The position numbers were made by a program, and so were the translations under genes. Under the pieces are notes generated by a model. The model did not search any database. It was not told the origin of the DNA and was given only the letters and a program-made list of their open reading frames with translations. This document shows positions 4,134 to 56,035 of a stretch of DNA of 56,035 nt, one piece after another. Location: positions 1 through 56,035 of IMG/VR virus record IMGVR_UViG_3300045988_113806; one strand, written 5' to 3'. Numbering within the stretch: position 1 is the stretch's first letter; each line of letters begins with the position of its first letter. Origin of the DNA: a virus.

Positions 4134-4157
4134 TGTTTCATTCGTCCTCCTTCCTTA

Positions 4158-35506: not shown

Positions 35507-36151
35507 TTATTCCTGATTATGGAATAAATTTTCATCGTACATGTAGTTTCCGTCGATGCCGTAGCCGTTGTAGTTGTCAGTCCACTGCCAGACATAACCG
35601 GAGATATCGTCTTCGGGCCCCCACTCGGCGTTCCAGACTGGGCAGCCCAGGGAACGCCAGTCGATGGCGCTGGTCAGCCAGCTGTAAGAAGCGTAGACGC
35701 CCCAGTTAAGCCCGATTTCCTTGCCAAAAGCCTTACACATGGCAGTGACGGTTGCGGGATCAGGCGCCCATCCCGGGTCCTCTGCATCAGCATCATCGGG
35801 ATCCGGGAGGGTAGCCGGGTCCCTTGGAAAGTTGTGCTGCTCTTTCCAGTGATCTGCGTCTTCCATATCGTAGAATACCGGCAGTTCCAGGAACACACCG
35901 GCTTCCTCGATGGCCGTCTTGCAGTTCCAAGCATTTTCTCTTGCGTCTTCAATGCTCAGAGAATAGTCATAGTGATACGCGCCTACAAGCATCCCATGGG
36001 CGTGAGCAGCATCTACATTTGCTTTGAAATTTTCATCTCTTCCATGCTTGCCGTAGGAGCAGCGAACGTAGCAGAACTTTACGCCTTCGGCCTCAAGCGT
36101 ATCCCAGGGAATATAGCTGTTATTTTCAGAAACGTCGATGCCTAAAATCAT
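35507..36151 (-). CDS. endolysin, glycoside hydrolase family 25 (muramidase), single domain
   Basis: MILGIDVSENNSYIPWDTLEAEGVKFCYVRCSYG... GH25 N-terminal signature. Confidence 0.85.
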   Translation of the reverse strand: MILGIDVSENNSYIPWDTLEAEGVKFCYVRCSYGKHGRDENFKANVDAAHAHGMLVGAYHYDYSLSIEDARENAWNCKTAIEEAGVFLELPVFYDMEDADHWKEQHNFPRDPATLPDPDDADAEDPGWAPDPATVTAMCKAFGKEIGLNWGVYASYSWLTSAIDWRSLGCPVWNAEWGPEDDISGYVWQWTDNYNGYGIDGNYMYDENLFHNQE

Positions 36152-36224: not shown

Positions 36225-39200
36225 TTACTGTGCAAAATTCATCAGCGCGTCATTTGATTCACGGAACTTCTTGGAGCCCGTCTTGGAAACACGTTCATTG
36301 AAGGAGCTGTTGCGCTGATTTCTGTATTGCTTCAATTTCTTGTTGGTGATTCCAAACTCTTTCATCTTCTGAACGTCTTCTGCCGTTCTCGGTTCTCCAG
36401 CTTCTTCCTTGTCCAGCAGGCTCCGGATGAATCCCTGCCGTTCTTCCTGCAATTCGGATTGTCTCTGTCTTTTTACCTGGGAAATGTCGGAGTTGATGGA
36501 TTCGTCTGCCAGCCGGAAACCTACAGCCTTAACAATCTTGTCATAGGTGCTGTCCAGCCCGCGCATGGTCCGTCCTTTTTTGTCTACGGTTTTTCCCAGA
36601 AGAACCTGTGCATAGTTGCCCAGGGCCGGAGAGAATCCTTTCAGCACCTGCAACGGATCATTATTATGGATCCCGATATACATCTGCGTGATAGTGGAGA
36701 GGGTAGGTCCGCCCAGAATATCAACCAGGGTGCTTTTAGGCGGGAGGATGAAGTCGCCCATACCGAACCGCTGAGAAATGTCAATGTTCACGGGCCGGGC
36801 AGCCAGCAGTCCGTACATGGCAATACGCGCCAGGCCACGCCCGATTTCACTATCGCCAGCAGCATCCATAATGGCCCCTTTGATTTTCAGCTTGTAGTCG
36901 ATCCCCAGGATTTGTTTAAACAGATCATTGAACCAATCAGTCACAGGAACCTGCATAACACCAGCCAGGAGGAAATACATACCCCAGAATTTCAGAGCTT
37001 TTCCTTTGGGTCCATTAATCGTAATGTCGTGCATCAGTTCCAGTTCCTTCACTTTGTATTTCTGGAATTGGAGCATCAGGTCCCCGATAACGGACCCCTG
37101 CACTTTCCGGAACGCTGCCGGAGCATCAACGGGGCTGTAATCGAAGTTGGACTTTCTGTTGACCATTCTGGCATATTCAATAGCCTCGTTGTAGTTCTTT
37201 CCTTCGCTGATAGCATGGTAGAAGCCGGAGAGAGCTGCCACCTTTCTGGAATAGGTATCGAAGAAGGAGAACACTCCCATGGTCTTGCTGAGAAGTGCGC
37301 GCGGTCGGAAAGCGGTATAACCACCGGCCCCTGCGTCCAGACGGATGTCATCCTGGATACCGCAATCATGCAATATCCGCATATCCTTGAAGCTGGGACG
37401 GAGTGCATGGCCTCCAGCTTTCAATGTTGCTTTCATATCACCAGTGATACCATAAGCGTTGACAATCTGCCCCAGGTTCAGCAGGGCGGAGGAGACATTG
37501 CAGAAGCCCAGCTTGGCAACGGAAATAGTGGAAGTAATACGGTTGGTCAGTTCCAGGGCAGCCCGGTCCCCAAACTTGGAAGATACAAAATCACGCCAGA
37601 AGGGGATACTGTTCAGCCATTCATTGATTCTCATTTCAATGCTGTTCGGGTCCCCGTTTACATCGTTGATGTAGTCCTTGACGTAGTGGGCCAGCTGGTT
37701 GTCGTTATAGTCCTTGTTCCAGGCCCCGAAATACCGCTCAAACAGGGAAATGGAACCGGACTTGAAGGGCTCCAGTGCGATATAGCGGGATGCCGCGTTC
37801 AGGTAATGGTGCAGTACCCAGTCAATGTTTTCTTCAAAGCCCAGGGCTCCTTTCCGCTGTAGGAAGTTTCCGAAGAAACGATGCCGGTTTTTGGTTTTCA
37901 CCTTGTCTTCCAGAAATTCCCGTGCTTCTTTCATGGTCATATTGAGCTGATCTTCGCACTTCTTAACCATCTCGAAATACTGACCGTCGCCGATTTCCAC
38001 GGCCCGTGCGTGTTCGTTGTCTCCAAAATTGAAGGACTTCGGGGCAATGGTCACATTATCGGCGTATTCAGGATGCTCCTTGATGTAGGCTTCTGCTTTC
38101 TTGTAAGCATCCTTGATATTCCGTCCGCTGCCAACTACCACGTTGTTCCCGTTCTCGTCTTTAGCAATTACAAAGAAGTCATGGAAGAAGTGAGGAATGT
38201 AGCCTTCCAACTTATGAATGTCGCCGCGGCGTTCTTCATAAACAACCTCATAGTTCTTTCCTTTCTTTTCTTCGGAAAGCACCTGGATGTTCGGATCACT
38301 TTTTAACTGTTTCAGCATTTTAGCGTCAACAGTATCAGTTGTTTTCCAGGTCTTTGACCGTTTGTAGGTCACAAGGTATTCATGCTCCAGGCTGCCTTTC
38401 TTGGCCGGGCCTCTATCTTCCAGACGGGTAATGTCCGCAAACTTATCCTGCATCAGATTTTTCAGTTCCGGTTTGGTCATGCGCTTCTGAATGGTTTCCA
38501 CGTGATTCCGGGTTTCATTGAGCATATTGTACACATGGTTAATCATGGCCCTGGTAGCGCTGTAGGCGTTGGCTACGTTCTCAGCTACACCCATATCCTG
38601 CAAATCTTTTCGGCTGTATTCCTTGCCTTCTGCATCGCCCTGCCACAAGAGGTTGGCCCAGTCCTGCACATCCTGTTTAGAATGGAGGTACAGGTGGTGG
38701 ATCCGGTTCAGCTGTTTGTTGAACAGGTTCCGCAGGTGTTCTTGGGTTGCCTGTGCTTTTACGGCCATTTTGAAGAAAGCCGCAAACCGTTTCACGTGTT
38801 CAGCGATATAAGACGGGGACCGGAGCAGGCTCTGGGTAATGCTCATTTCCCGGACTACATCGTTCACAGCTACCTTGATTCGTTCGTTCTTGTCGCCTTT
38901 GAGCTTGGTTTTCAGGTTGTCAGCTGCGTTACGGACAGAGAAGGCAACGTCGTCGGTTGCAAGATCATCCATGGACCATACTGCCTTGTCATTGGGGTTG
39001 AAGTCCGGATTCTTGGCAATAATAACATTGCCTTTTCTGCCAACGTCCTTGAAATAGTCCTGAATTTCTCCCACGTATTCGGAGGTTTTCATGTTGTTCT
39101 GGTAACTCTGCTGCTTTTCGGTAGCATTTCCTACACCGCTTCTGTCCCCTTCATAAATCTGGAAATAGGCAGTGCCGTCTTTCTTCAATGCCTGGGCAGC

Positions 39201-42200
39201 TTGCAGAATAACACATCTTCTCCAGGCGGGTTGTTTGATGGTATTCAGGACGTTGGCAACGGTTACTGTATCCGCCTTCCCTTTAATGGCCTCCAGTGCT
39301 TTATCATTTTCTTCCTTAGTCCGGTAATATGGATCAAAGACAACGTTTTCCACGCCGTGTTTTTGTTTCAGATAGTCGGTCGTCACGTTGTATTTTCCGC
39401 CGCCGATATCGATGTTTCTCGTTCCCTGCTTCCAGGGGATGGTCTTGAACATGGCCGGGACCTGCTTCGGAGAAGTCTCTGCATCGTATTCCTGTTGCTC
39501 AGCCGTATTGGAAGAATGGTTAGAGGCGGCGTTCATAGCTGCATCATTGATTTCCGCAGAACGATTCCATACGTTCCCTTCCGCCACTTTGCGCATGACG
39601 TTGTGGACGTTTTCAACTCCGGTCAGGATGGCCTTCGCTTTGCTCACAAAGTCGTTGACTTTCTGGAACAGCTTCCCGTAATAGGATCCTTTCCCTTCGG
39701 TGCGCTGCTTCTTCCATTCCTTGTAGCCGTCTGCCATAGCTTCGCTTACCGTCTTTCCTCCGGTGTGCTTGCTATAGTATTTGGTCATGGCCGCCTTTTC
39801 CTTGTCATTGAGGGCCATATCCCATGCTGCATGGAAGGCTTCATGGTACGCGGATCCAGTGCTGCTTTCCTGGGAAAGGGCAATAACGGCATCGCTGTTC
39901 AGGGTAGGCTGCTTGTAGTAGCCTTCTACCACGATGTTGTCAGCATCCGCCATTCCATGTTCTTTCCGGGCCTTCTTTTCGGCCTGTTCCCCTACAATGA
40001 TGTTCTTTTGCAAGTCAACGGTGATGGTCCCGGCTGCTGTCTTCACTTTCATTTGAGAGTCGTTAATATCACTGATTTCTGACTGAGGGAAGGCATCACG
40101 CACTTCCTGCTTCAAGCTGTCCAGGGAGCGCTGGATATTGGTATCGGAGGATTCATTGTTCTCATTCAGTGAATCAGCGTAATCAGTTTCGGTTGGACTG
40201 GCAGAAGCGTTTTCTTCTTCACGAACGGAATACCGCTTGCCATCATCGGATAAACGGTCCGGCATACTGATATTTTCCAGATTATCAAAGAGTTCGTTGA
40301 TAGAATCGCCAGGAAGGTCGAATGTTCCATCAGCAAGGGATGCTGCCTTGCTTCTCAAGTCCGGGTCGGAATACTTGTCAATAACAACAAGTTTGGTTCT
40401 GACAGCGGTTCCAGCCCGTTTAAAGGTAATATCAGGCAGATTGATGGTTGCCATAATGACGCCATCTCTAACACCTCTGTCCTGCCACCGGCTTGCGTCC
40501 GGATCGCCATTGAACCATTTGTCGAACCGTTTGTTGGCGGCCGGTCCGTCCGGGATAATGGCAATCAGACGGCCTCCATCCTTTAAGTGCTTGTAGGCTT
40601 TTGCGACATGTTCTATTGCGGTCTTGCCGCCCAGCCCGAACGGAGGATTCATAACAATTCCGTTGAACTTATTGTGCAGGTCCATCAGCTCAAAACCGCT
40701 CTTAAAGAGCTTAACGTTGTTGACGTTGCGCATAAGGCGTGCTTGAAGAACGTTGGAAGGTTCAACAACGGTATTGGAAGTGTTGTTCGGCATCCACCTA
40801 GCAATAGCGCCGTCACCGGCAGACGGTTCCAACAAGCTGTCTCCGGGCTGAGCATGAAGCCATTCAACCATCTTTTCACCCAGAGGTTCCGGAGTAGCAA
40901 AATAATCAATGCCTTCCCGGCTTTTGGCTCTGGCATCTTTTTTTTGTTTCCCGAAATAGAACGCCTTGGCACGGTCAAAGTCATCCATGGTTTCCTGCTG
41001 ATAGTCGATTTCCTTGCCGCCTGTACCTTCTGTTTTACTGCCCGGCAGATACTTTTTCCAGTCATCGCTGTCCTGTGATTCTTCATAGGCTTGCACATAG
41101 GAATTTTTCAGAGCTCTGGCGTTCTCGCCCATGGCAAGGTTTTCAACCGTCCCCGCGCGTTCTGCCACCTTCTGCGCAAATGCCATTTGTTCGAAGTTGG
41201 TTCCAGTATTCAAGTACCGGAACAGGGCATTGGACTTGTTACCGAAGCGGTAAATACGTCCTTCCTGCTGAATAGCCTCACTTGGTTTAGTAGGCAGGCC
41301 CAGGTTAATGAGGACTCTCTGGTGCTTGCCGGTCGTATCATGGAGGGAAATACCAGCCTGCCCGGCATCGGACTGAACAAGAATGATCTTAATCGGGCTG
41401 TCATCGTTGTTAAACGCTTTAATGGCCGCGCTTCTTTCCTTTTTGGAAAGGGTGCCATTGTAGATTGCAATACTCTTTCCAAAAGCGTCACTCAGTGTCT
41501 CAATGGGAGATTTCAGAGAGGAAAGTTTCAGATGAAGTAAATCCGGTCTTTCGTTAATGAAACTTTCATATTGCCTGGTTAATGCAGCTTGTCTTTCAGG
41601 TTCGATTTGAGAAAACGCTTTTTCCGGGAGGATGAAAGGATTATCCGCACCGCCTTTGTTAAAGTTATGGAAAACAACAACCTTTTTTCCTTCTTTAACG
41701 TAGTCTTTGATGATGGGAATAGTGCTCTTTGCCTTGATTGCCTCCAGCAGATAGAATCGATAGAATCCACGGAAGCGCTGGTTCAGAACGTCCGCAAGTG
41801 CATCATACTTTTGGTAATGATCGCTCAGCCAATTAAAACCATCGTCAATCTTTTTGCCTACACCGGCATCCACACGGATGAAGCCGCGGTCATAGTCATA
41901 GTCGGAAGAAAGCATCCGGCCATGGAGTGCTCCGCTTTTCATCATCTTTTCGTTGAAAGATTGTTCCATGACGGTGGAATCCACATCTGCGCCAGGTCTG
42001 TTCAGCTGATTGTAGCGCATACTGTAGCCGAAATTCTCGATATAGAATTGCTGTTTCCCGTTCGAGCGGTTATACCCCTGCTGCTCCATGGGGCCGTAGT
42101 CGCTGTAGTTGAACAGGTATCCGTTGGCATAGTCCAGGTCATTGACATACTGGAAAGGCGTTGCGGACAGGAAAAGGGCCTTGGATTTGGGGCGTTTCTT

Positions 42201-45200
42201 GTACAGTTCTTCTTCCTTGCGGCGGAGCTTATCGTATTCGTTATATGCCTTGTTGTAGGCATCTTCCTTGTCCTTGATGGCCTCTCTCAGCTCTGCCAGG
42301 GTTTCTCCGGGGTTCAGCGTCCTGCTGGCAAGGCGGGTTTCGAGTTCGTTCAGCTCGTTTCTCTTATTGGTAATATCTTCGTATTCTTTGGTGTATTTAT
42401 CTTCAAAGTATCTATAGAATCCATCATCGTGGGCGGACATGGCTCTTACGGCGTTCAGGGCCTTTGTGGGTTCGGCTTTTGCACCGCTCATCAGTTTGTG
42501 GCTTTCGTCACAAACAATCAGGTCCCAATTCCGTTTGGTAATTTCCTTGTTCTCACCAGCATTGGCATAAGTGGTGGTAACGGGGCCTTTCCCGCTGTCC
42601 GTTGTATCTGCCAGCCGGGTCAGCTTGATACCGAAGCTCTTTTTAGCTGCTTCTTCCCAACCTTTCAGAATATCGTCAGAGGGTGCCAGGACAATGACGT
42701 TTTGTTTTCCTGCATCATAAAAGCGCTTTACAACACCCATGCCGGTGTAGGTTTTCCCCGTCCCGGTGCCATTGGTGAACATCATGCCATTGGCTTTTTC
42801 CAGACGGTCCTCGGCCAACATAACATCGTTGACCTGCTCCGGCGCAAGCATTGGAAGCGCTTTCTTCAATTCATTCAGTTTTTGGTTGATCTCTTTTTCC
42901 TGAGCTTTGGTTACAGGGCTTTCATGCTTGGGTCTGTCTTTAACAGATTTAACAAGCTCTTCAGGTCCTTTTCGTCCATCATCGGGAGCTCCTGCATAGC
43001 TATCTGCAATGCTTCCTGGTAGTTTAGGACTTCCGGCGCGTCTATCTTCGGATTTTTCAGCTTGTACTGTGCTATTGCCAGTCTTTCCGCCAGCAGAGGT
43101 GCCACTATCTGAAACGCTACGATTGCCAGTTCCGTGTTCTTCGGGTCCTTCTCCTGTCTTTTCACGATTTTGTCCGCTTCTTCCATCGGATCCGGAGCCT
43201 TGAACACGACTTTCCCCCATTGTGTTTTCACCGGGCCCTTTGCCAGCTCGTGGAGCCACTCCGGGAACGCTGCTTTTAACATTCTTTTCAGCCCCTTTCT
43301 TGCCAGTTTCTTCTGCTTTCATTATACCATTTTCCGGTTTCCCGTTGTCTTTGTTTTGCTTGGTTTCGCTGGCAGTAACCTTCTCGCCTTTATTAGCTGC
43401 CTCGTTTCTGAGCCCTTCATAAAGATCATGAACATAAGGCTTCATGGCGGTTTTTAATGCGTTTCTTTTGTTGAGCAAATCTGCAAAGTCATCAATCGCC
43501 TGCTGATTCTTTTGGTCATAGGCAGCATTGTAAATGTCAAGTGCTTCTTCTTCCGCACCGCCCAGCATGCCTAATTCGAAATCTTGTTCAGTGCTATTCT
43601 TTGCTACTATTGCCAAATTCTTATCCGCACGCAGATTATCTCTGATTTGCTTGATTCCTTTGTCGAGAGAATAATCTTTCAGCAAATCTTCATAGGGCTT
43701 TTTAGCTGTTTTCTTCGCTTTCTCCTGGGCTGGAGCGGGGGCCGCTTCTTCCTTTTGCTTTTCTTGAACCGGTTTATTCTCGATTTCGGGTACGTCTACC
43801 GCGTCATGCCTTGCATCTTTCAAAAATGCGTCACGGTCTGCATCCGTATTGAATACCCATCCGCGTTCACCGCCGAATTTAGAATAATGGCCCTTGTGCT
43901 CTTTGGCCAATTTATTTGCTCTTTTAAATTCTCCATTGAGAACACTATACCCTTTTTGGATACCAACACGGGCCCAGGTTCGGCCGCTTCCGCTGTCGGT
44001 TACGGAGTCGGAAAAATAGTGGTCATTCCCATAGCGTTGCTGTTTTGTATCTACGGCTGGTTTGGCTTCCGGAGCAGGTTTGGTTTCTGCTTCTACAGCC
44101 GGTTCTGCTTCCTGCTGGTTTTCTACTTTAGCCGTGCTGAGTGCTTCTTCCTGGCTGTTTGCTGTCTGGCTGGCTTCCGTTGCACCGCCTGTAGTATCAT
44201 TCGCAGCATTGGCTGTAGAATCTTCTGCCCCGACTTGGGCCTTTTTCCATTCTGCATAGCCGTTCATGAAAGCCATCCTGGAATTGTAATAGGTGTCCGC
44301 CAGATCATCAGCCACACCTTGCGCTCTGCTTGTAAAGTTGCCCCAGTCTGTGTCGGGTGCTTTAAGCGGGCCATATTGCGGATTCATCATGACGGGGAAT
44401 GTATCTTTATATGCCTCTTTGAAAGTCGGGAACATATATTTTCCTACAATCCCTCTATTAATCGGGTGCATGTTGAAAATACCCGCTTTAGTGTCTACAG
44501 CCAGCTTCTTGATTTTTTCAGGAGCCTGCTTATCAAAGTCGCGAAGGTCAAACTTCATGGTACGTTTAACCAGCTCATTCTTTTGCTTCAATGCTTTGTC
44601 AGCGGGTCTGACCATGCCGGTAACATAAATATCGTTGCCGAACACTTTTGCCGTCTGCTTATAGTCATGATTAATGCCCTGGAAGCTGTACTCAAAGTCG
44701 GGTTTTCCTTTGGGAGCTTCCTGCACTACCTCTCCGGCTGGCTTATTGTTGACGGCTTTTTCAGCCTCCGGCTTTACGTCTTGTTCACTCTTTTCACCAG
44801 GATTCCCGGCTTCGTCTGCTTGAACTGGTTTGCTACCTTCAGCAGGAACTTCATTGTCTTCGGCTGTATGTCGTTCACGTGCGTTGCCGTTTTCACCTTC
44901 TGGATTTGCGCCTTGTTCAAGTTCGGGGTTGAGATCTTTATCCCCTTGTTCAGCGCTACTTTCCTGCGGTAACTGCGTACCCGTCTGCCCCAAAGCATAC
45001 TTTTCAGCATCCCCTTTCATCACATGGTAGGAATAATCCACTACATCAATCGGCTTGATTTGGTCCGGTGTTACGCCTTCATCCTGGAAGAGTGCGGTAG
45101 CATCTTCTTTCGGATTCCCCAACTGATTGATGATGTTGGCCATTGTCGTGAAAAATTCTGTGGTATTCTTGCTTCCACGTCCGCTTTCATCCACAAATTG

Positions 45201-48200
45201 CAGAATGGCATGGGCTTCGGGAGAAAAATCCGGAAGCAGGGCCTGCTCCTGTAAATAGATACTCAGCTTGGTATTATTCTTGCGCAGGCCATCCAGCCGG
45301 TTCCCCGCTTCTGCAATAGGACCGGTTACATTGATATTATACCGCATACCGTCCTGGATTCTCTTGTTTAAAAGAGCGAAAACAGGAGAAACCTGCACCA
45401 TAGAGGTGGTATAGCTCTTAATAGGGCTGTCGGTATCCATGGTAACAAGGTTCAGTAGACGTTCACTGCCGTCACCATAGGCCATAGCGAATACAGCATT
45501 GCGGGCGCGTTCCACTCCTTCCTTGCTGGGTTCCATTCGGTCATTCAGGAGCGGGTTCAGCTTATTGGGATCACCGCCCGTTATATCTTTCAGGACAGAA
45601 AGAACATAGTCGTTTGCATTGGCTGTGGTAACCAGGGAATGAGAAGTATTGTCGATGAATCTTTCAAGTGTGGAATCCTTGACCTTTTTAGAGTCAAGCA
45701 CAGCCCGTTCGGCTGCGTTCATTTCAGCTCCGCCGACTTTGGAGATAATAATCTTTTCCATCTCGTCCGGACTTGCGTTGACTTCTCTAACAAGGACAGG
45801 GTTCTTCATCTTATCAACAGCAGCAGGGTTCAGTCCCAGTCTTTGGGCGTTCGCTTTCAGGGCCTTCTTATAAGCCGCGCCCCTGCCGTTTCTATAGGCC
45901 GCCTTGATCCCCATGGCGCGGCCATTCCCATTCAAGACAATTCCGTTGGAATTGACTACGGGCGCGCCGGTATTAATCATCTGACTGTCCATCAGTCTGC
46001 CGGGGTCCAGCTTATTGGAGATGGAAATAACCTGCTGACGCATGGTAGCATTGTTTCTGTCTCTGGGCTGGAACTGGGAAGGATAGGCCGGGTTCGTCCG
46101 GATATTCATTCCGCTGTCCGTATCGTGAGAAACTACCAGGTCGTTGGCATCTGCCAGCCGGTATTGTGCTTTGTATTTGGTCTGATCGTCGCTTTCGATG
46201 GTTGTAGTATTTCCTCTGGGGCTATTGGCATACCGCTGTTCCTGTGCGCCAGAATTAGTTACAGGCGCGTTTTCCTGCATACTGGAGGGATTTACCGTGC
46301 TACTGCTTTCCGTGGCCTGTGCGGGTGCCTGGGGAGCCTGCTGGAGCATTTTAGGTTGCTCACGCACCATATCTTCCAGCGCTTTCCGGTCCCATTCGCG
46401 GATTTTACTGAACAGGTCCGCCGCCTTTTGGTCCCCCTGCATAGCACGTTGAGCCAGGTTAATAAGGCCGTTGCTGTAGCCGTTGGGGTTATTGACCGTA
46501 CTCACATTGTAGGGGGTGTATACCTGTCCCATGAAAGGACGGTGAATAAACGGGATCCGGTTCAGATTCTCGAACGTGGGGAGGGTTCCCTTTTTCTTTT
46601 GGGCAGTCGTGGTTGTGGTAGCAGTCTGTTTCTGGACTTGCGGACCGGCAGCCGGACTTTTCAAGTTGCCGTTTGAAAGGCCCATTTCGTCCCGGAGCTC
46701 AGAAAGGATACGGTTGGTTTCTGCGTCCTGAGCATCATTCTGTTTCTTGACTGCATTATAAACGGATTCAATGACGTTTGGATTCTTGCTGGTCAGTGCT
46801 TCATCAATGGCGTTGTTCAGGTCCGGATCATCAAACTGGCGCTGATTCTCTTTCAGGTAATTCAGCTTGTCCTTGGTGTCTTTAGCCGTGGTGAATACAT
46901 CTTCAATCTTACTGGGGTCATTGGAACCAAGAGCATCATCAATGGTATCCTTCATTCCAAATTCGTCAAATTCCCGCTGATTCTCTTTCAGATAATCCGT
47001 CATATCCTTCAGGGAAATACCGCTGACGGTGCTGCTTACACCGCCTCTGGAACGTCTATTGCTACCTCCGTTGTAGTTGGTGAAATCCAGGTCCAAATGG
47101 CCGCCTGTGGAATTGGGAGAAGGATTTTCGTATTCGTCCAGAACTTCAATCCCGCGCTTCTCGCACTCTTCGATGAAAGCATGGCGCTTTTTAGCATCGT
47201 CCAATACACCGCCAGACACATCCAGCTTCACACCGGCATAGTGGGAATGAGGGCCATCCGCATGGACTCCGGAATCGTTGCCGGACGTAACGGTCAGGGG
47301 AACGCCAAAAGTGTTGTAGTACACATCGGCAATATCCGCCAGGCCCGCTTTAGTAACATCCTGCACGTTTTCCACGTCCACGGAATCATCCAGCCGGTCC
47401 CAGGTTTTTCCTTCTGTGTTCACCATCATTTCAGGAGTAAAGGAAGAAACAGCAGAGGAAGAACCACCGCCGTTCTGCATCTTGCTCATGACAGAGGCTA
47501 CATACTCATTGACAGAAGGGCCTGTGCTTTGAGGAGCATTGAAAGAGTATTCGTTACCTTCATCATCAATCCCGGTGGTCAGACCTTCGGCGTAGCGTTT
47601 ACCATTCTGTTCCCCTGCGTACCAGGCAACAGCAGCACCCTCCGGGCCGTAATCCCGTACATACTGTTCCAGCTTGTGCTTTGCGGTGGCGTTGTAATCA
47701 TCCACGTTGTTCATATCGCCAACATGGCCTAACGCTTCCGTGGACCATTCTTCCCAGTTGGAGGGGAGAATCTGCATGGATCCGTATGCACCGGTGGAGC
47801 TGTTGACTGCTTCCGTATCCCCGCCGCTCTCCTGCCCGGTAATCGCGCTGGCAAGGTCATCGGTCAGGCTGGAAATATCTTCACCGGAGGAAGCCGGGGC
47901 GGCTGCTTCTTCGTTCTGAGAAGATACCGTTTCTTCCGGTCCTTCGGTTGCGGTGGTGTCGATGGTTTCATCGAGAGCGCTGCCACTAGGCCCGTTGTTA
48001 TTATTCTCAGGCCCGCCGTTTTCGGGAGTGGGTCCGTTTTCATTCGGATCATTGGGATTAAAGTCTCTGGCATCAACATCATTGACATCACGGTCAGCCC
48101 ATCTCCGGGCAATACGGCTTCCCAGGGCACCCGCACCACCGAATAACATACCAGGACCCATAGCGGCCATAGCTTCGTCTTTCTGGCCTTGTGTCCATTC

Positions 48201-49121
48201 GAAAGGATCAACTACACTGGTCAGGCCACCAGGCTGCTTTCCTTTTGCGTAATCGCTGGCGCCTCTCTGCATACCTTCTTCCCAGGATTGCTGTGTTGCA
48301 CCACCGACAACACCGGCAGCCCCCAGGGCCGCTTTTCCCATTTTGGAGGTTACGTTTTTACCGAACATGGTCCCTAATCCCATGGATTCAGCGGTATTGG
48401 AAAGAGCCAGGAGCGGAGTCTGTATCAATGCGTTCACGGCAGCTGCTTTTTTCAGCTGATCCGGATCCGTGATACCTTCTTCCTCCATATCCTGGATTAC
48501 GTTACCGGATTCGCTGGCCACTTCAATAGGAGTCTTTGCGGCGTTTGCAACAATAAGGCTGCCGTATTTACTGGACAATGCTCTGGAAAGGGAGGGCAGC
48601 CCGTGAGCTGCTGCCTTTCCTGCAAAGTAATTGGCTAAGGTACTTAAATTGCCGACACCGGCAGCTCCGGCCATGGTGCCTAATGCTGCGGTTTCAGCTC
48701 CCATCATTAAGGCAGAACCTGTCATGTTCCCTGCATCATAAGCAAGGCCCTGGGGGTCCGTGATGTATGCCATGGGGTTGGAAGTGATGGTGTCAAAGTT
48801 CCAGTTATGGGTACGGGTGTTTCTCTTTGCAATTTCGTTGAGGTCATTGGCCATATCCCCGCCCATTCCCAAGAAAGTGTCGGAAAGGGTGGCCTGGCCG
48901 GACAGAACACCGGACGCACCGGCCTTAATACCGGAAAGAATGTTGTCCAGGAAACCGGCGTTTGCAAAGTTTTCCTCTTGAGAAAGTGGGGCGTCAGCAT
49001 CGCTGCGCCCCGTAATAGGATTGTAATAATACTCTTTATCTTCAATGGCACCGGTGTTAGGATCAACACCGTAAAACTCGTTTTCCTCTTTATCGATTTG
49101 TTCAAAAGGATCAAAAGCCAT
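36225..49121 (-). CDS. giant (4298 aa) multidomain virion-internal/ejection protein. It combines a lytic transglycosylase, an M15-like peptidase, an SF2 (SNF2/DExH) helicase, an N6-adenine DNA methyltransferase, an HExxH motif and C-terminal membrane segments.
   Basis: SLT motif GQESGGDTEAVNSSTGAYGSMQILPSNW. Peptidase-like SGNDSGVHADGPHSHYAGVKLDVS...GGHLDLDF. Helicase motif I TGTGKTYTG, motif II LIVCDESH, motif III LFLSATP, motif VI QQEGRIYR. MTase motif I LEPSAGDGAI, motif IV VMNPPFG. YHEAFHAAW. Hydrophobic GMYFLLAGVMQVPV / LARIAMYGLLAARPV. Confidence 0.75.
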   Translation of the reverse strand: MAFDPFEQIDKEENEFYGVDPNTGAIEDKEYYYNPITGRSDADAPLSQEENFANAGFLDNILSGIKAGASGVLSGQATLSDTFLGMGGDMANDLNEIAKRNTRTHNWNFDTITSNPMAYITDPQGLAYDAGNMTGSALMMGAETAALGTMAGAAGVGNLSTLANYFAGKAAAHGLPSLSRALSSKYGSLIVANAAKTPIEVASESGNVIQDMEEEGITDPDQLKKAAAVNALIQTPLLALSNTAESMGLGTMFGKNVTSKMGKAALGAAGVVGGATQQSWEEGMQRGASDYAKGKQPGGLTSVVDPFEWTQGQKDEAMAAMGPGMLFGGAGALGSRIARRWADRDVNDVDARDFNPNDPNENGPTPENGGPENNNNGPSGSALDETIDTTATEGPEETVSSQNEEAAAPASSGEDISSLTDDLASAITGQESGGDTEAVNSSTGAYGSMQILPSNWEEWSTEALGHVGDMNNVDDYNATAKHKLEQYVRDYGPEGAAVAWYAGEQNGKRYAEGLTTGIDDEGNEYSFNAPQSTGPSVNEYVASVMSKMQNGGGSSSAVSSFTPEMMVNTEGKTWDRLDDSVDVENVQDVTKAGLADIADVYYNTFGVPLTVTSGNDSGVHADGPHSHYAGVKLDVSGGVLDDAKKRHAFIEECEKRGIEVLDEYENPSPNSTGGHLDLDFTNYNGGSNRRSRGGVSSTVSGISLKDMTDYLKENQREFDEFGMKDTIDDALGSNDPSKIEDVFTTAKDTKDKLNYLKENQRQFDDPDLNNAIDEALTSKNPNVIESVYNAVKKQNDAQDAETNRILSELRDEMGLSNGNLKSPAAGPQVQKQTATTTTTAQKKKGTLPTFENLNRIPFIHRPFMGQVYTPYNVSTVNNPNGYSNGLINLAQRAMQGDQKAADLFSKIREWDRKALEDMVREQPKMLQQAPQAPAQATESSSTVNPSSMQENAPVTNSGAQEQRYANSPRGNTTTIESDDQTKYKAQYRLADANDLVVSHDTDSGMNIRTNPAYPSQFQPRDRNNATMRQQVISISNKLDPGRLMDSQMINTGAPVVNSNGIVLNGNGRAMGIKAAYRNGRGAAYKKALKANAQRLGLNPAAVDKMKNPVLVREVNASPDEMEKIIISKVGGAEMNAAERAVLDSKKVKDSTLERFIDNTSHSLVTTANANDYVLSVLKDITGGDPNKLNPLLNDRMEPSKEGVERARNAVFAMAYGDGSERLLNLVTMDTDSPIKSYTTSMVQVSPVFALLNKRIQDGMRYNINVTGPIAEAGNRLDGLRKNNTKLSIYLQEQALLPDFSPEAHAILQFVDESGRGSKNTTEFFTTMANIINQLGNPKEDATALFQDEGVTPDQIKPIDVVDYSYHVMKGDAEKYALGQTGTQLPQESSAEQGDKDLNPELEQGANPEGENGNARERHTAEDNEVPAEGSKPVQADEAGNPGEKSEQDVKPEAEKAVNNKPAGEVVQEAPKGKPDFEYSFQGINHDYKQTAKVFGNDIYVTGMVRPADKALKQKNELVKRTMKFDLRDFDKQAPEKIKKLAVDTKAGIFNMHPINRGIVGKYMFPTFKEAYKDTFPVMMNPQYGPLKAPDTDWGNFTSRAQGVADDLADTYYNSRMAFMNGYAEWKKAQVGAEDSTANAANDTTGGATEASQTANSQEEALSTAKVENQQEAEPAVEAETKPAPEAKPAVDTKQQRYGNDHYFSDSVTDSGSGRTWARVGIQKGYSVLNGEFKRANKLAKEHKGHYSKFGGERGWVFNTDADRDAFLKDARHDAVDVPEIENKPVQEKQKEEAAPAPAQEKAKKTAKKPYEDLLKDYSLDKGIKQIRDNLRADKNLAIVAKNSTEQDFELGMLGGAEEEALDIYNAAYDQKNQQAIDDFADLLNKRNALKTAMKPYVHDLYEGLRNEAANKGEKVTASETKQNKDNGKPENGIMKAEETGKKGAEKNVKSSVPGVAPRAGKGPGENTMGESRVQGSGSDGRSGQNREKTGEGPEEHGTGNRSVSDSGTSAGGKTGNSTVQAEKSEDRRAGSPKLPGSIADSYAGAPDDGRKGPEELVKSVKDRPKHESPVTKAQEKEINQKLNELKKALPMLAPEQVNDVMLAEDRLEKANGMMFTNGTGTGKTYTGMGVVKRFYDAGKQNVIVLAPSDDILKGWEEAAKKSFGIKLTRLADTTDSGKGPVTTTYANAGENKEITKRNWDLIVCDESHKLMSGAKAEPTKALNAVRAMSAHDDGFYRYFEDKYTKEYEDITNKRNELNELETRLASRTLNPGETLAELREAIKDKEDAYNKAYNEYDKLRRKEEELYKKRPKSKALFLSATPFQYVNDLDYANGYLFNYSDYGPMEQQGYNRSNGKQQFYIENFGYSMRYNQLNRPGADVDSTVMEQSFNEKMMKSGALHGRMLSSDYDYDRGFIRVDAGVGKKIDDGFNWLSDHYQKYDALADVLNQRFRGFYRFYLLEAIKAKSTIPIIKDYVKEGKKVVVFHNFNKGGADNPFILPEKAFSQIEPERQAALTRQYESFINERPDLLHLKLSSLKSPIETLSDAFGKSIAIYNGTLSKKERSAAIKAFNNDDSPIKIILVQSDAGQAGISLHDTTGKHQRVLINLGLPTKPSEAIQQEGRIYRFGNKSNALFRYLNTGTNFEQMAFAQKVAERAGTVENLAMGENARALKNSYVQAYEESQDSDDWKKYLPGSKTEGTGGKEIDYQQETMDDFDRAKAFYFGKQKKDARAKSREGIDYFATPEPLGEKMVEWLHAQPGDSLLEPSAGDGAIARWMPNNTSNTVVEPSNVLQARLMRNVNNVKLFKSGFELMDLHNKFNGIVMNPPFGLGGKTAIEHVAKAYKHLKDGGRLIAIIPDGPAANKRFDKWFNGDPDASRWQDRGVRDGVIMATINLPDITFKRAGTAVRTKLVVIDKYSDPDLRSKAASLADGTFDLPGDSINELFDNLENISMPDRLSDDGKRYSVREEENASASPTETDYADSLNENNESSDTNIQRSLDSLKQEVRDAFPQSEISDINDSQMKVKTAAGTITVDLQKNIIVGEQAEKKARKEHGMADADNIVVEGYYKQPTLNSDAVIALSQESSTGSAYHEAFHAAWDMALNDKEKAAMTKYYSKHTGGKTVSEAMADGYKEWKKQRTEGKGSYYGKLFQKVNDFVSKAKAILTGVENVHNVMRKVAEGNVWNRSAEINDAAMNAASNHSSNTAEQQEYDAETSPKQVPAMFKTIPWKQGTRNIDIGGGKYNVTTDYLKQKHGVENVVFDPYYRTKEENDKALEAIKGKADTVTVANVLNTIKQPAWRRCVILQAAQALKKDGTAYFQIYEGDRSGVGNATEKQQSYQNNMKTSEYVGEIQDYFKDVGRKGNVIIAKNPDFNPNDKAVWSMDDLATDDVAFSVRNAADNLKTKLKGDKNERIKVAVNDVVREMSITQSLLRSPSYIAEHVKRFAAFFKMAVKAQATQEHLRNLFNKQLNRIHHLYLHSKQDVQDWANLLWQGDAEGKEYSRKDLQDMGVAENVANAYSATRAMINHVYNMLNETRNHVETIQKRMTKPELKNLMQDKFADITRLEDRGPAKKGSLEHEYLVTYKRSKTWKTTDTVDAKMLKQLKSDPNIQVLSEEKKGKNYEVVYEERRGDIHKLEGYIPHFFHDFFVIAKDENGNNVVVGSGRNIKDAYKKAEAYIKEHPEYADNVTIAPKSFNFGDNEHARAVEIGDGQYFEMVKKCEDQLNMTMKEAREFLEDKVKTKNRHRFFGNFLQRKGALGFEENIDWVLHHYLNAASRYIALEPFKSGSISLFERYFGAWNKDYNDNQLAHYVKDYINDVNGDPNSIEMRINEWLNSIPFWRDFVSSKFGDRAALELTNRITSTISVAKLGFCNVSSALLNLGQIVNAYGITGDMKATLKAGGHALRPSFKDMRILHDCGIQDDIRLDAGAGGYTAFRPRALLSKTMGVFSFFDTYSRKVAALSGFYHAISEGKNYNEAIEYARMVNRKSNFDYSPVDAPAAFRKVQGSVIGDLMLQFQKYKVKELELMHDITINGPKGKALKFWGMYFLLAGVMQVPVTDWFNDLFKQILGIDYKLKIKGAIMDAAGDSEIGRGLARIAMYGLLAARPVNIDISQRFGMGDFILPPKSTLVDILGGPTLSTITQMYIGIHNNDPLQVLKGFSPALGNYAQVLLGKTVDKKGRTMRGLDSTYDKIVKAVGFRLADESINSDISQVKRQRQSELQEERQGFIRSLLDKEEAGEPRTAEDVQKMKEFGITNKKLKQYRNQRNSSFNERVSKTGSKKFRESNDALMNFAQ

Positions 49122-49135: not shown

Positions 49136-51211
49136 TTATAATCCGAAAGCCTCCCAGTCAGTATCGTTGAACAGCTTTTTAGCAAGGTCATTACCGTAAC
49201 GCTTTCTGGCTGCTTCCATCATGCCTTCCTTGTCCAAGCCCTGATCCCCGGCCTGTTGATTGTATTGCAGGGCCTGTGTCCATTCGCTCATCTTTAAGCG
49301 ATAGATATTATTCTGTGTGGGGTCCGGTCTGTCTCCATAAATGCTTTTATACGCATTGTCTCCTGCTTTTTGGAGCCAGGAGAAGAAACCGCCAGAGGAA
49401 TCGCCACCACCAGGAGAAGGCTGGGCCGGTGTCTCGGCTTCGGGAGGCCCATTCCATGTTCCAATCCCCGTTTGCCGTACAGCAGCATCAATTAAGTAAC
49501 TGATTTCATCCGGACTGAGGTTGTTCTCAATACTAGATAGGTATTGATAAATTTCATCTGGACTGGTTTTCCCGGTTTTCAATACTGTGCCGATTGCCCC
49601 AATCAGTTTGTTTTTAGCTGCTGTGCTGGGCTTCGGGTCCTCTCCTACGGTTGTATCACCGTAGGCCACAGAGGTTTGCCGGAGCAGTTCACCTACGGTT
49701 TTTGGTTGTTTCAAGCTGCCGGTAAGTCCACTCCGGGAACTGCCGAGTCCTTTGCCCAAGGCAATCTGTACAAGTTGTTCCGGTGTAGCGTTCGGATAGA
49801 TTTTAGCGGCGAGGGAAACACGGTTGGCAATTTTCTGCTGTTCTGCTTGCAGGGCCAAATTGGTTTTGTATCTTGCCATTTCCTTGTTGATTTGTAAATT
49901 GAATTTGGCAAGGTCTTTGGTGTTTTGCAGGTTATCTTTTGCAAATTTCTCTTTCTGTGCAAACTGATGGTCCGACTTTTTGTACCACTGTTCGTTCTGC
50001 CACAGAGTCGGATAAAATACCGCGTTCTTCAGGAACAGGTTTGCCGCCTCCGGATTATCTTTGAAAAGTTGTACAATCTTCTCCTGGAACTGTGCGGTAG
50101 TCGGGTCCGCTGTCAAAAGGTCTTTCAAGTCAAGCTGCGTATTATGGTCTTTCACTTTCTGATCGTAGGAGTCGGCCATCATTTCCAGGGTAGACATGGT
50201 TTTGGCAATCCGGTCCTCGTCAAACCCATCTTTTAACATAGCAAGGCGCTGTTGCATCAGCCATTTGGTCTTGTCAAATTCCATCCGTTCGTTAGGGTCC
50301 TGTTTAGGGACCGGCTGAGGGGGCGGGAGCTGGCTTGCAGCTGCCGTGGACTGCTGTTGCTGATCCGCAGCAGGGGCCGGTGCTACCGGCTGAGCAATAT
50401 TGCCCCCTGCGTTCACGGTATCAAGCATCTGTTGAACTGCCGGGTCTCCTGCGTTCTGCTGCAAGGCGTTCCCTACCTGCTGGAGCTCCTGAGCCTGCCG
50501 GAGCTGGAAATTGGAGGGGATAATTGCTTCCGGAGACGTATCTACCGCAGCCCCGCCAACTCCATTCGTGTTGGCTGTATCAGCGGGGCTTGACTGAAAA
50601 AAACCGTTGCCGGAAATCCCTAAACCGGGTTGCTGCCCGTTTCTAATCTGCTGTTCCAGTTCCAGCTGGTCAAGAACCTGCATACGCGGATCCTGCTGAT
50701 AGTCGGTAGAACCGATAGAAATAGCGGGCTGCTGCTGAGTCACTACTGCGGCAGCCGGGGCGGTTTGCGCGGCCGGGGCTGTGTTCCCGGAAATGCCGAT
50801 TGCACCGGCAGCACCCGGAACGCCGTTGATTACATTTGCGTCATTCTGCATGCTCTGTTCCCATGCTTTCTGGGCTGCCGGGTTGTCCTGCAAGGGGACA
50901 ATCTGCTGAGCACTGGGAATGGAAGTGTCGCCGATGGAAAGCTGGTCCAGGGCCTGAGCCTGCTGTTCAGGAGTGACAGTCGGTTCGAATCCGTTCAGGG
51001 AAGCTGCTGCGTTCTCCAGGATTTTCTGTTCTCCGCGCTTATTGTAGTTATCAGCCAGAGTGGAACCGGCCATATATCCCAGTGCAAAGTAGGGATCACT
51101 GTAGGCCAGTTTGGTCCAGTTGACCTGCTGCTTGGTGTTTCTCGGCGCATATTTGGCATAAGTGTTCGTTGTAGTATTCGTTGCCATTTCTTTCCTCCCG
51201 ATGATTACCAT
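49136..51211 (-). CDS. virion-internal/ejection protein candidate (691 aa; Gln/Ala/Pro-rich)
   Basis: position between the Hint protein and the giant protein. Confidence 0.45.
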   Translation of the reverse strand: MVIIGRKEMATNTTTNTYAKYAPRNTKQQVNWTKLAYSDPYFALGYMAGSTLADNYNKRGEQKILENAAASLNGFEPTVTPEQQAQALDQLSIGDTSIPSAQQIVPLQDNPAAQKAWEQSMQNDANVINGVPGAAGAIGISGNTAPAAQTAPAAAVVTQQQPAISIGSTDYQQDPRMQVLDQLELEQQIRNGQQPGLGISGNGFFQSSPADTANTNGVGGAAVDTSPEAIIPSNFQLRQAQELQQVGNALQQNAGDPAVQQMLDTVNAGGNIAQPVAPAPAADQQQQSTAAASQLPPPQPVPKQDPNERMEFDKTKWLMQQRLAMLKDGFDEDRIAKTMSTLEMMADSYDQKVKDHNTQLDLKDLLTADPTTAQFQEKIVQLFKDNPEAANLFLKNAVFYPTLWQNEQWYKKSDHQFAQKEKFAKDNLQNTKDLAKFNLQINKEMARYKTNLALQAEQQKIANRVSLAAKIYPNATPEQLVQIALGKGLGSSRSGLTGSLKQPKTVGELLRQTSVAYGDTTVGEDPKPSTAAKNKLIGAIGTVLKTGKTSPDEIYQYLSSIENNLSPDEISYLIDAAVRQTGIGTWNGPPEAETPAQPSPGGGDSSGGFFSWLQKAGDNAYKSIYGDRPDPTQNNIYRLKMSEWTQALQYNQQAGDQGLDKEGMMEAARKRYGNDLAKKLFNDTDWEAFGL

Positions 51212-52341
51212 TCATTGGTAGCACCGATAGCCACGAAGCCATTGGCGTAATACCGGTTGTCGCCTGTCAGTTTCATGTCGTATACTCTTGCTTCTTCAAG
51301 TGGAGCATAACCGAAAATGCGGGCCGTCCCTTTGTCGGTGAGAATGGTATCACCGGCATGGAGCTCTTTCAGGGTTGCCAGGGTGCCGTCTTCCTTCACA
51401 AAAGGCTGGGTGAATGTGGTGTCCACTTTGAACACGTCGTCGCCGTCAAAGGCAATCAGCCGGTAGGTATCGGCTCTGCCGTTCTTTAATACATCTACAA
51501 CGGTTTCAACGCTTTCTTTCCCGCCTTTGGAAGGACAAATAACCTTGTCGCCTGCTTTAATTGCGGAAATCTTTTTGGTTCCTTCCGGTGTCTTGATTTT
51601 CGTGTTCCCTGCAAAGCAGAAAATACCGCCGCTGTTGGAAGCGTAGCCAGCCAGCAGGCCACCAAACAGGCCGCTTCCTCCGCTGGTTTTCTGTGTAGCG
51701 GTCGTTGTTCCCTGACCAGATACACCGGCAAGCGCGCTGTTAGTTGCTCCATTGAGCCCCAGAGAAGCGTTCCAAAGGTTGAGTGCGGGCTGCTGTGCGG
51801 CTTCCTGTGCGGCAGCTCCAGTAGTAATACCGGCGTTCGCTCCGCTCATCTGCTGCCCGTAAAGCTGGCTCAAAAGGCCGATGTTACTGGTGTATGCATT
51901 GGCCATGGCCTGAGAAGCAGCATCATTAATGTCTGCAATTCCCCTGTTTGTAACGCTGGAGTTCAGCACACCATTACTGCCTAATGTGTTCAGCATATTT
52001 CCCATGGAAGAATTGACTCCCTGCTGGATCTGGTTCTGCATATTCTGGGTATATGCCGTAGGCAGCTGTCCATTAATGAGGCCCTGCACACCCTGCTGAG
52101 CGCCGGCAATCTGCCCCTGGGCCGACTGGTTTAATCCGTTGAAGTCAACCTGTGTGGAACCGATGGAATCCTGGAGGATGTTCCTGGCAACATTGTTCAG
52201 CCACAAGGCGTTAGGCGCTACAGCTTCGGAGTAATCAGCTGCCTGGCGTTGTAGCCTTCTTTCTTCTGGTGTCGGCGTGTAGCTCTGGACCGTTGTGTTG
52301 CTGGAGCCCTTTTTATGGAGCTGTAAAACTAAATCAAACAT
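51205..52341 (-). CDS. virion protein with Gln/Asn/Gly-rich N-terminal region and C-terminal Hint (Hedgehog/intein-like) domain
   Basis: GGIFCFAGNTKIKTPEGTKKISAIKAGDKVI ... ends ...DNRYYANGFVAIGATNEW. Confidence 0.55.
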   Translation of the reverse strand: MFDLVLQLHKKGSSNTTVQSYTPTPEERRLQRQAADYSEAVAPNALWLNNVARNILQDSIGSTQVDFNGLNQSAQGQIAGAQQGVQGLINGQLPTAYTQNMQNQIQQGVNSSMGNMLNTLGSNGVLNSSVTNRGIADINDAASQAMANAYTSNIGLLSQLYGQQMSGANAGITTGAAAQEAAQQPALNLWNASLGLNGATNSALAGVSGQGTTTATQKTSGGSGLFGGLLAGYASNSGGIFCFAGNTKIKTPEGTKKISAIKAGDKVICPSKGGKESVETVVDVLKNGRADTYRLIAFDGDDVFKVDTTFTQPFVKEDGTLATLKELHAGDTILTDKGTARIFGYAPLEEARVYDMKLTGDNRYYANGFVAIGATNEW

Positions 52342-55904: not shown

Positions 55905-56035
55905 TAGTAACTCACTCCATTTCCATCTATGATATTTGTAATAGCTGTAGCAATAGCAGTTGCTACTGCTCCAGATGTTACCAGGTTTGTGCTGCCGTCC
56001 GTTACTGTAGTATCGATAACCGGTTTATTTAAGAT
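55904..56035 (-). CDS. C-terminal end of the same tail fiber CDS (…TSGAVATAIATAITNIIDGNGVSY*); TAA at 55906-55904 overlaps the ATG of the next gene
   Basis: frame continuity across the junction: reading down from 87 to 1 then 55948 gives …GAVATAIATAITNIIDGNGVSY then stop. Confidence 0.65.
   Translation of the reverse strand: MLNKPVIDTTVTDGSTNLVTSGAVATAIATAITNIIDGNGVSY
55949..56035. repeat. terminal redundancy, copy 2 (identical to 1-87)
   Basis: exact identity to 1-87. Confidence 0.9.

Follow-up and report, generated by a model that had tools for sequence, protein, structure and literature searches.

The 56,035-nucleotide virus sequence analysed here (IMG/VR record IMGVR_UViG_3300045988_113806, positions 1 to 56,035; the whole stretch is referred to as the window) contains one uninterrupted open reading frame (ORF) of 4,298 codons, which makes up 23.05% of the genome. 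We interpret its product, at a probability of roughly 0.75, as a polyvalent protein of the phage type that belongs to a temperate and probably short-tailed Acidaminococcus phage and by analogy would be carried in the virion and injected. Polyvalent proteins are proteins of phages and conjugative elements that are predicted to be injected and that combine disparate domains, including lysozyme/transglycosylase, DD-peptidase and DdrB-ParB domains and a SWI2/SNF2 ATPase with an N6-adenine (N6A) methylase, the archetype of the last being P1 DarB (Iyer et al. 2017, J Bacteriol; PMC5512222). In line with this description, the window ORF encodes SLT, LAS peptidase, DdrB-ParB, superfamily 2 (SF2) helicase, N6A methyltransferase (MTase) and class-I MTase-like domains, and it lies among the late/virion genes of a portal-terminase phage, with an endolysin gene immediately downstream. 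The hub domains of polyvalent proteins, i.e. DdrB-ParB and the SNF2/SF2-N6A-methylase dyad, are all present with scores above the cut-offs, and both DdrB-ParB and lysozyme domains are described as specific to the phage-type proteins (PMC5512222). With at least eight recognisable modules in 4,298 amino acids (aa), the protein stands at the large end of the described range. Judged from sequence comparison, it belongs to the already described Parlo/Lastavirus (PLxRFG) polyvalent architecture, here in a phage of Negativicutes.

Integrity of the reading frame and overall architecture

The giant ORF begins 14 nt past the stop codon of the preceding 691-aa gene, with an AGGAG Shine-Dalgarno sequence 8 nt upstream of its ATG. 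Positions 1-87 of the window are repeated exactly at 55949-56035 (87 bp; an assembly overlap or a direct terminal repeat), which indicates that the genome is complete and circularly closed, with 55,948 unique bp. A chance origin of a frame this long is ruled out, and significant domain matches are spread along its whole length in one frame. The intact ORF is confirmed by an independent assembly, a metagenome-assembled genome (MAG) of Acidaminococcus sp. (HRGM_Genome_3823, locus L007), in which at least 4,236 uninterrupted codons remain open to the edge of the fetched locus and the C-terminal module is 95% identical to that of the window protein. Neither megablast with the giant gene nor tblastn with its C-terminal module found a match among 50,697 phage records.

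An earlier note, made from the DNA letters of the window, had described a single uninterrupted 4298-aa ORF making up 23% of the genome, and both the translation and the L007 counterpart bear this out; no stop codon or frameshift splits the window ORF into several genes. Every motif quoted in that note is found in its place in the translation, and domain searches support four of the six modules that it listed (SLT, helicase, MTase and the M15-like segment), the C-terminal hydrophobic helices being without such support. Two further modules had been overlooked, namely a P1 DdrB-like ParB domain and a second MTase-like domain, both recognised here by sequence comparison. The gene and the modules of its product, from N to C terminus, are as follows.

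36225..49121, minus strand, giant polyvalent-protein gene, ATG start, 4,298 codons, AGGAG ribosome-binding site, without internal stop
48087..49121, minus strand, aa 1-345, Gly/Ala-rich N-terminal region (G+A content 26%; no Pfam match)
47592..47867, minus strand, aa 419-510, SLT (GH23) lytic transglycosylase (Pfam PF01464, E 1.2e-7)
47037..47423, minus strand, aa 567-695, Hedgehog/DD-peptidase (LAS, M15-like) zinc domain (predicted ligands H627, D634 and H675)
46752..47030, minus strand, aa 698-790, spacer between the peptidase and ParB domains, with two tandem helical repeats of ~45 aa, read from the translation
45126..46187, minus strand, aa 979-1332, DdrB-like ParB domain with adjoining DdrB-homologous region (Pfam PF18763)
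44190..44717, minus strand, aa 1469-1644, linker and small domain, missing in relative L005 (blastn and blastp of L005 versus the window)
41118..42908, minus strand, aa 2072-2668, SF2 (DExH, SNF2/Sno-like) helicase (ResIII, Helicase_C, Helicase_C_4)
40362..40934, minus strand, aa 2730-2920, gamma-class N6A DNA MTase (EPSAGDG at 2765, motif I; NPPF at 2825, motif IV)
39552..40133, minus strand, aa 2997-3190, conserved HExxH module, putative gluzincin-type metallopeptidase (HEAFH at 3093-3097 and invariant E3127)
38937..39509, minus strand, aa 3205-3395, second, class-I S-adenosylmethionine (SAM)-MTase-like domain (IDIGGG at 3236-3241, VFDP, NVLN)
36228..38936, minus strand, aa 3396-4298, conserved C-terminal module, divergent PLxRFG/'tail-700' domain (NCBIfam NF032893)

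DdrB-like ParB domain and the helicase-methyltransferase dyad

The strongest single match of the giant protein is that of its ParB domain to Pfam PF18763 (114.5 bits, E 4.1e-33), and in BLASTP the protein is 27.5% identical over 367 aa to residues 39-395 of P1 DdrB (E 7e-33). The helicase scores above the cut-offs of three Pfam models, i.e. ResIII (51.7 bits), Helicase_C (44.0 bits) and the Strawberry-notch-type Helicase_C_4 (36.2 bits), and the SF2 motifs reported earlier are in place (GTGKT at 2120, DESH at 2205, SAT at 2319 and QQEGRIYR at 2618). The N6A MTase proposed in the earlier note is likewise supported, both by the Pfam model MTS (26.2 bits; cut-off 23) and by phrog_6263 'DNA methyltransferase' (E 1.2e-19), and there is a match to PADLOC mad2 (2.1e-15).

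The helicase and N6A MTase had been described as DarB-like, and this holds for their pairing in one polypeptide; homology to P1 DarB itself is remote and the domain order is reversed, the helicase preceding the MTase in the giant protein and following it in P1 DarB. Residues 91-275 of P1 DarB, i.e. its MTase, align with the giant-protein MTase (BLASTP, E 1.4e-6), and the helicase matches P1 DarB by BLASTP only at E values of 0.016 and 0.36, which are not significant.

Wall-degrading domains in the N-terminal part

For the N-terminal 975 aa, a search of 5.8 billion proteins yielded only four homologues. The SLT lytic transglycosylase recognised in the earlier note has a score above the Pfam gathering cut-off (31.8 versus 21.3 bits) and all its catalytic motifs are present, i.e. 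the E-S pair (E431-S), GxMQ (GAYGSMQ at 444) and AYxxG (AWYAGEQ at 499).

The segment that follows, formerly described as an M15-like zinc peptidase, is a conserved domain of ~125 aa, with 127 relatives in an exhaustive HMMER search; 37 of these have E-values below 1e-10, and many of the relatives belong to proteins of 2,500-5,300 aa. In an alignment of 38 sequences (A6), H627, D634 and H675 are invariant or nearly so and correspond to the H-x6-D...H zinc triad of LAS enzymes. No Peptidase_M15/VanY model of Pfam matched the segment or any of its 38 homologues, two of the 38 matched Pfam HH_signal, and single-sequence and profile searches of PDB sequences with the segment gave nothing meaningful. 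In an AlphaFold2 model of the segment (predicted local distance difference test score, pLDDT, 81.9), Hedgehog N-terminal domains are the 32 best PDB matches in Foldseek, followed by the murein endopeptidase MepA; the E-values of the Hedgehog matches are weak, at 0.05-0.3, with probabilities of 0.91-1.0 and template-modelling (TM) scores of 0.40-0.49, and the list is coherent. On the combined evidence of conserved residues and a predicted structure, we accept the segment as a Hedgehog/DD-peptidase-fold zinc domain. Between this domain and ParB, the two spacer repeats carry a YLKENQR.FD... pattern, which reads YLKENQREFDEF in the first copy and YLKENQRQFDDP in the second.

The HExxH module and a second methyltransferase-like domain

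The HExxH module, which carries the HEAFH motif (at 3093) that had been noted before, recurs in six other proteins at 29-40% identity. In alignment A4 the His, Glu and His residues and a Glu 30 residues downstream are invariant, as in the gluzincin pattern. Pfam and PDB sequence and profile searches with the module found no metallopeptidase match, and profile-profile comparison (hhalign) with the HExxH regions of P1 DdrB, Parlo and ZX1 gave probabilities below 10%. A separate homologue search with the module was empty, a result due to the word index of the search and not to absence, since homologues are known. The ArdC-like character proposed earlier finds no support beyond the HExxH motif, which is the sole shared feature: Pfam matched no ArdC_N domain in the whole-protein scan or in any of ten segments. 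HExxH metallopeptidases of the MPTase type have been proposed to process the polyvalent polyprotein (PMC5512222); the window differs from the described polyvalent proteins in that its HExxH module is unrecognised by the Pfam MPTase model, and in that its Methyltransf_23-like domain and its C-terminal module are without a 'polyvalent' Pfam family.

Following the HExxH module, the motifs IDIGGG, VFDP and NVLN fit motifs I, II and IV of class-I SAM methyltransferases, and the segment that holds them recurs at 38-55% identity in 13 polyvalent proteins. On that segment, Pfam Methyltransf_23 scored above its cut-off of 27 bits in one protein (P0035, 29.3 bits) and below it in two (P0024, 16.1 bits; P0025, 19.5 bits); the window copy has no direct Pfam match. 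Searches of PDB sequences with the combined HExxH and second MTase-like segment, and with the profile of the latter, gave nothing meaningful. There is no dedicated Pfam family for the module, and the polyvalent proteins in which it recurs, 860-1,780 aa in length, are otherwise unrelated.

An alternative reading is that the enzymatic cargo serves host takeover or inter-element warfare and not antirestriction, for example through a ParB-type nuclease directed at the DNA of the host or of rivals, or through methylation that targets non-DNA substrates or other defence systems. The domain resembles the class-I MTases that act on small molecules, proteins or RNA (Methyltransf_23) and not DNA MTases; ParB/Srx domains of the type present here have been discussed as DNases or NTPases (PMC5512222), and other members of the family carry ADP-ribosyltransferase and PBECR1 RNase cargo. 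However, the helicase and N6A-MTase dyad is the signature of DarB, and for the P1 archetype, protection of DNA in cis from type I restriction has been demonstrated (PMC5512222). We regard a role mainly in takeover or warfare as unlikely, noting that it and antirestriction are not mutually exclusive and that the present data do not discriminate between them.

The C-terminal module

Three lines of evidence identify the last ~900 aa as a divergent PLxRFG domain. First, NCBIfam NF032893 matches the isolated module over profile positions 309-662 of 681 (E 1.5e-19), albeit with a score of 69.9 bits that is below the 100-bit cut-off (for comparison, ZX1 scores 688 bits and Parlo 701 bits). Second, in a motif alignment with ZX1 and Parlo, GYIPHFFHDFFV at aa 3640 stands where the PLxRFG family has PYFPL[AS]RFGDFFV; this variant is invariant across the Negativicutes subfamily, the invariant motifs of the module including GYIPHFFH and KNRHRFFGN, and the PLxRFG motif itself is without a match. 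Third, the profile of the C-module family (A2), which comprises 22 homologues at 31-46% identity and one at 96%, matches the C termini of ZX1 (4.8e-21) and Parlo (6.4e-18). An NCBIfam scan of the whole protein failed to list NF032893, a miss that we attribute to the HMMER filters acting on a very long query, and the result for the segment is taken as valid; family scans of very long proteins can thus miss real domains.

The earlier note had assigned hydrophobic helices and a membrane-channel module to this part of the protein. Neither assignment is supported: a single 19-aa window (aa 4042-4060) reaches a Kyte-Doolittle value of 1.32 and none reaches the usual transmembrane threshold of 1.6, the hydropathy scan thus showing no classical transmembrane helix, and there is no convincing channel-like structural match, the region being the PLxRFG domain. 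A search of PDB sequences with the C-module profile gave nothing meaningful and no match to any solved ejection protein.

The structural model of the module is largely alpha-helical and of moderate quality (pLDDT 70.9; predicted TM score, pTM, 0.60). In Foldseek it resembles C-terminal pieces of many giant phage proteins, and also the full-length 'Internal virion protein D' of the Roseobacter phages CRP-4 and CRP-5 (E 4e-8 and 9e-7; TMq 0.43-0.47). A role in the virion core or in the ejection apparatus is possible.

These matches raise the possibility that the protein is mainly a structural component of an ejectosome, a functional analogue of T7 gp16, with a transglycosylase at its N terminus, a helical trans-envelope conduit at its C terminus and ~2,900 aa of cargo inserted between them, in which case DNA delivery would be the essential function and antirestriction a secondary one. 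Consistent with this proposal are the position of the SLT domain near the N terminus, the largely alpha-helical nature of the 900-aa C-module, the fact that this module is the sole part common to all family members, and the resemblance to the CRP-4 and CRP-5 proteins; furthermore, there are no other recognisable ejection or internal-core genes, the upstream 378-aa and 691-aa genes being unannotated save for a Hint domain. On the other hand, no sequence profile links the module to any solved ejection protein, it has no classical transmembrane segments, its model is only moderate, and 'Internal virion protein D' is a label given by depositors and not a tested function. We consider a mainly structural role possible, but doubtful.

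Similar considerations apply to a comparison with T7 gp16-type proteins in general. The window protein shares with them a lytic transglycosylase at the N terminus, a large helical body at the C terminus and a place in the late operon, and the C-module has weak structural matches to PhiM1 gp48 and to 'Internal virion protein D' proteins; it differs in that sequence homology is absent, the structural scores are marginal and the two ends are separated by ~2,900 aa of enzymatic cargo. Casjens and colleagues have listed proteins of this kind as putative very large ejection proteins, extending up to the 5,007-aa Pavtok gp27 (PMC8402733).

Relatives with a constant C-module, variable cargo and natural splits

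The C-module family is present at 21 genome loci, in each case at the end of an ORF, and these ORFs range from 2,733 to at least 4,315 codons. With the exception of two MAGs labelled Ruminococcaceae and Bacillota, all loci are from Negativicutes or Synergistota, and the taxa represented include Acidaminococcus, Megasphaera, Megamonas, Selenomonas, Pectinatus, Veillonellaceae, Fretibacterium and Synergistaceae. Across these prophages the C-module is constant and is the sole part conserved in all members, whereas the N-terminal cargo varies: SLT, helicase, MTase and MuF_C in Megasphaera, helicase, MTase and MuF_C in Pectinatus, DdrB-ParB, LPD3 and PBECR1 in a Synergistaceae MAG, and ART-PolyVal, LPD1, LPD3 and GNAT elsewhere.

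In two lineages close to the window the gene is split. Two loci from two sequencing runs, L003 and L004, are 95% identical to the window at the nucleotide level over 13.9 kb and share an insertion of one A (L003:9947 and the same site in L004; window 39831-39845) within the HEAFH codons, GAA becoming GAAA, which destroys the motif and yields products of 3,116 and 1,187 aa. In L005, a 107.9-kb contig with 90-94% nucleotide identity, TAG replaces the CAG codon of Gln949 (L005:12860-12862, corresponding to window 46275-46277), yielding products of 953 and 3,066 aa, and aa 1469-1644 are missing through an in-frame deletion.

Stop-codon recoding with a suppressor tRNA was considered for the L005 amber codon and rejected, because there are no tRNA genes in the window and the difference is a single CAG-to-TAG change, for which a plain nonsense mutation is the simpler account. 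Programmed frameshifting at the L003/L004 insertion was likewise rejected as unlikely, there being no slippery heptamer and the insertion falling inside a conserved motif.

The split loci must be weighed as evidence that two or three separate polypeptides are the functional unit, the 12.9-kb frame being a recent or incidental fusion or an assembly error. The amber and frameshift splits both favour such a reading, as does the position of both breaks at or near module boundaries. However, the window ORF is free of stops and frame breaks, its domain matches run over the full length in one frame, and the L007 frame is open for at least 4,236 codons. More distant relatives are also uninterrupted at 3,492-4,135 codons, with one at 4,315 codons or more, as are the proteins of cultured phages at 3,764-4,602 aa. 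Moreover, a restart downstream of the L005 amber codon would cut into the ParB domain, and a conserved motif is lost through the L003 frameshift, so that the breaks look like damage to resident prophages and not like designed boundaries. We therefore read the split variants as mutations in resident prophages, in which very long remaining frames nonetheless persist, and judge separate polypeptides to be a very improbable form of the functional protein.

Genomic context, phage type and host

The giant gene stands at the end of the virion-morphogenesis block, immediately before the endolysin gene. In circular order on the minus strand, the genes for the large terminase (TerL), portal, major capsid protein and a fibre-like protein are followed by six further genes, the giant ORF, the endolysin gene and two small genes. 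One of the six encodes a 378-aa protein with a Hint domain, and the 691-aa gene directly precedes the giant ORF. The annotated neighbours are listed below.

10814-12304, minus strand, large terminase TerL
8090-10474, minus strand, portal, ~25% identical to podophage portals
5286-6473, minus strand, major capsid protein
1885-3621, minus strand, fibre-like protein
51205-52341, minus strand, 378-aa protein encoded two genes ahead of the giant ORF, with C-terminal Hint/pretoxin-HINT domain (Pfam PF07591, 2.8e-8, above cut-off)
35507-36151, minus strand, endolysin, directly downstream of the giant ORF
32322-33881, plus strand, large serine recombinase/integrase (phrog_95, E 9e-126)
27382-28326, minus strand, RecE-like recombination exonuclease of the early region (phrog_434, E 2.5e-100)

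The genes of the structural block from the capsid gene to the giant ORF are mostly without a meaningful PHROG or Pfam match (49136-51211, 52349-53044, 53243-54592, 54970-55704, 81-1091, 3630-4799 and 6562-7848, all on the minus strand), the exceptions being one weak match to a PHROG of unknown function and one sub-threshold Pfam match. The 378-aa protein with its Hint domain is shared with relative L005; finding a self-cleaving module of this type in a block of virion genes is unusual.

No match to tail-tube, sheath or tape-measure proteins was obtained, many structural genes being without any annotation. Together with the similarity of the portal to those of podophages, this suggests that the phage is probably short-tailed. 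It is temperate, as indicated by the serine integrase and by the integrated relatives L003, a prophage located beside glyQ/glyS and a YadA-type adhesin gene, and L007, a prophage in an Acidaminococcus MAG. The host is Acidaminococcus (Negativicutes, human gut).

Comparison with other giant phage proteins

The closest described counterparts, from temperate podophages, are gp81 of Serratia phage Parlo, a 3,764-aa 'DarB-like antirestriction protein' with an N-terminal transglycosylase domain (PMC6606913), and the ~495-kDa 'PLxRFG protein' of the Klebsiella Lastavirus phages ZX1, LASTA, SJM3 and SopranoGao, which takes up 19% of the genome (PMC9505181). In these phages and in the window the gene closes the morphogenesis module, ahead of the lysis genes, and fills 19-23% of genomes of ~56-63 kb, and the order helicase, N6A MTase, HExxH and PLxRFG domain is common to the proteins. 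The helicase-MTase region of the window protein is 38-40% identical to those of Parlo and ZX1 by BLASTP (38-39% over aa 1893-2989) and the C-module is homologous, whereas the N-terminal 1,900 aa have no BLASTP similarity to either. The window protein differs further in its DdrB-ParB, LAS peptidase and second SAM-MTase-like domains, in a C-module that falls below the NCBIfam cut-off and reads PHFFH for PLxRFG, and in its host, a Negativicute in place of a proteobacterium.

Giant proteins of similar size occur in the Bcep22-like phages (Lessievirus). Gp69 of JC1 (4,515 aa, 22.1% of the genome) was represented by 51 unique peptides in CsCl-purified virions, and virions of Bcep22 and BcepIL02 were likewise analysed by mass spectrometry by Gill et al., the giant proteins being virion-associated (PMC9144972) and thereby the precedent from experiment. 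These proteins resemble the window protein in giant size (Bcep22 gp75 has 4,602 aa), in their location as the last gene of the virion module, directly ahead of the lysis cassette, and in the possession of a lytic transglycosylase-like domain, an N6A MTase with NPPF, an SF2 helicase and an 'LLHEAFH' motif. However, they have no BLASTP match to the window protein at E 0.01 and none from the C-module profile, the MTase precedes the helicase as in P1 DarB, and the PLxRFG motif is absent; the relationship is thus one of analogy or very remote homology.

With respect to P1, the N-terminal ParB region of DdrB (995 aa) is clearly homologous and the MTase of DarB (2,255 aa) detectably so, but in P1, a myovirus, these are separate proteins, whereas in the window they are fused. 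The fusion is not new, as the earlier note had implied that it might be: the same one is already annotated in Parlo, Lastavirus, the Bcep22-like phages and Pseudomonas phage Skulduggery.

Proposed role of the giant protein

In the role that we propose by extension from homologues and analogues, the giant protein would be made late, packaged inside the capsid and ejected together with the DNA. The SLT domain and the LAS zinc peptidase would then cleave the peptidoglycan where the phage enters, in its glycan strands and its peptide cross-links, and the DdrB-like ParB domain and the helicase/N6A-MTase dyad would act on the incoming phage DNA; in the DarB model, translocation along DNA would be accompanied by methylation or by shielding against restriction. 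The HExxH module may cleave the polyprotein into separate effectors, and the ~900-aa C-module, as a constant chassis for variable cargo, would probably place the protein in the virion core or ejection apparatus. The underlying logic of injection, breaching of the wall and protection of DNA was proposed by Iyer et al. 2017 (PMC5512222). The interpretation given in the earlier note is thus supported in part, the union of peptidoglycan-degrading domains and a DarB-type helicase and MTase pair in one protein being borne out.

Several observations weigh against the assignment of the window ORF as a packaged and injected polyvalent protein. The mass-spectrometry support comes from the Bcep22-like proteins, whose relationship to the window protein is one of analogy, neither BLASTP nor the C-module profile detecting homology. 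Homology to P1 DarB is distant, with the order of the dyad reversed, and no homologue of DarA, Hdf or DdrA came to light, DarA having no BLASTP match to the giant protein and none of the three having been sought in the neighbouring genes. A peptidase function of the HExxH module is putative, and the podovirus morphology is drawn from the portal similarity and the lack of tail matches among many unannotated structural genes. Finally, there are two near-identical prophage lineages in which the gene is disrupted, which implies that the intact fusion, and in one case also the HExxH motif, is either dispensable or has been lost in decaying prophages.

A wider proposal, which we advance tentatively, is that the PLxRFG/tail-700 module might be a conserved ejectosome or virion-core part of a broad class of podophages, acting as a gp16-like conduit or anchor and as a chassis for swappable cargo. 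Were this so, a wall-breaching N terminus and a conduit-forming C terminus would bracket ~2,900 aa of anti-defence enzymes, and the natural splits would show that cargo and chassis are separable.

Implications

Giant polyvalent proteins fill one fifth of some phage genomes, and members with the PLxRFG architecture have so far been without functional characterisation. What is new here is the Negativicutes host, the pattern of a constant C-module with variable cargo in Negativicutes and Synergistota, and the natural split variants. Our results do not change the understanding of how such proteins work; they extend the class to phages of the Negativicutes, the diderm Firmicutes of the human gut. 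The intact, amber-split and frameshift-split lineages, at 90-95% identity, are natural experiments on which parts of the protein need covalent linkage, and the value of the work lies in annotation and in providing a candidate for studies of anti-restriction in gut anaerobes.

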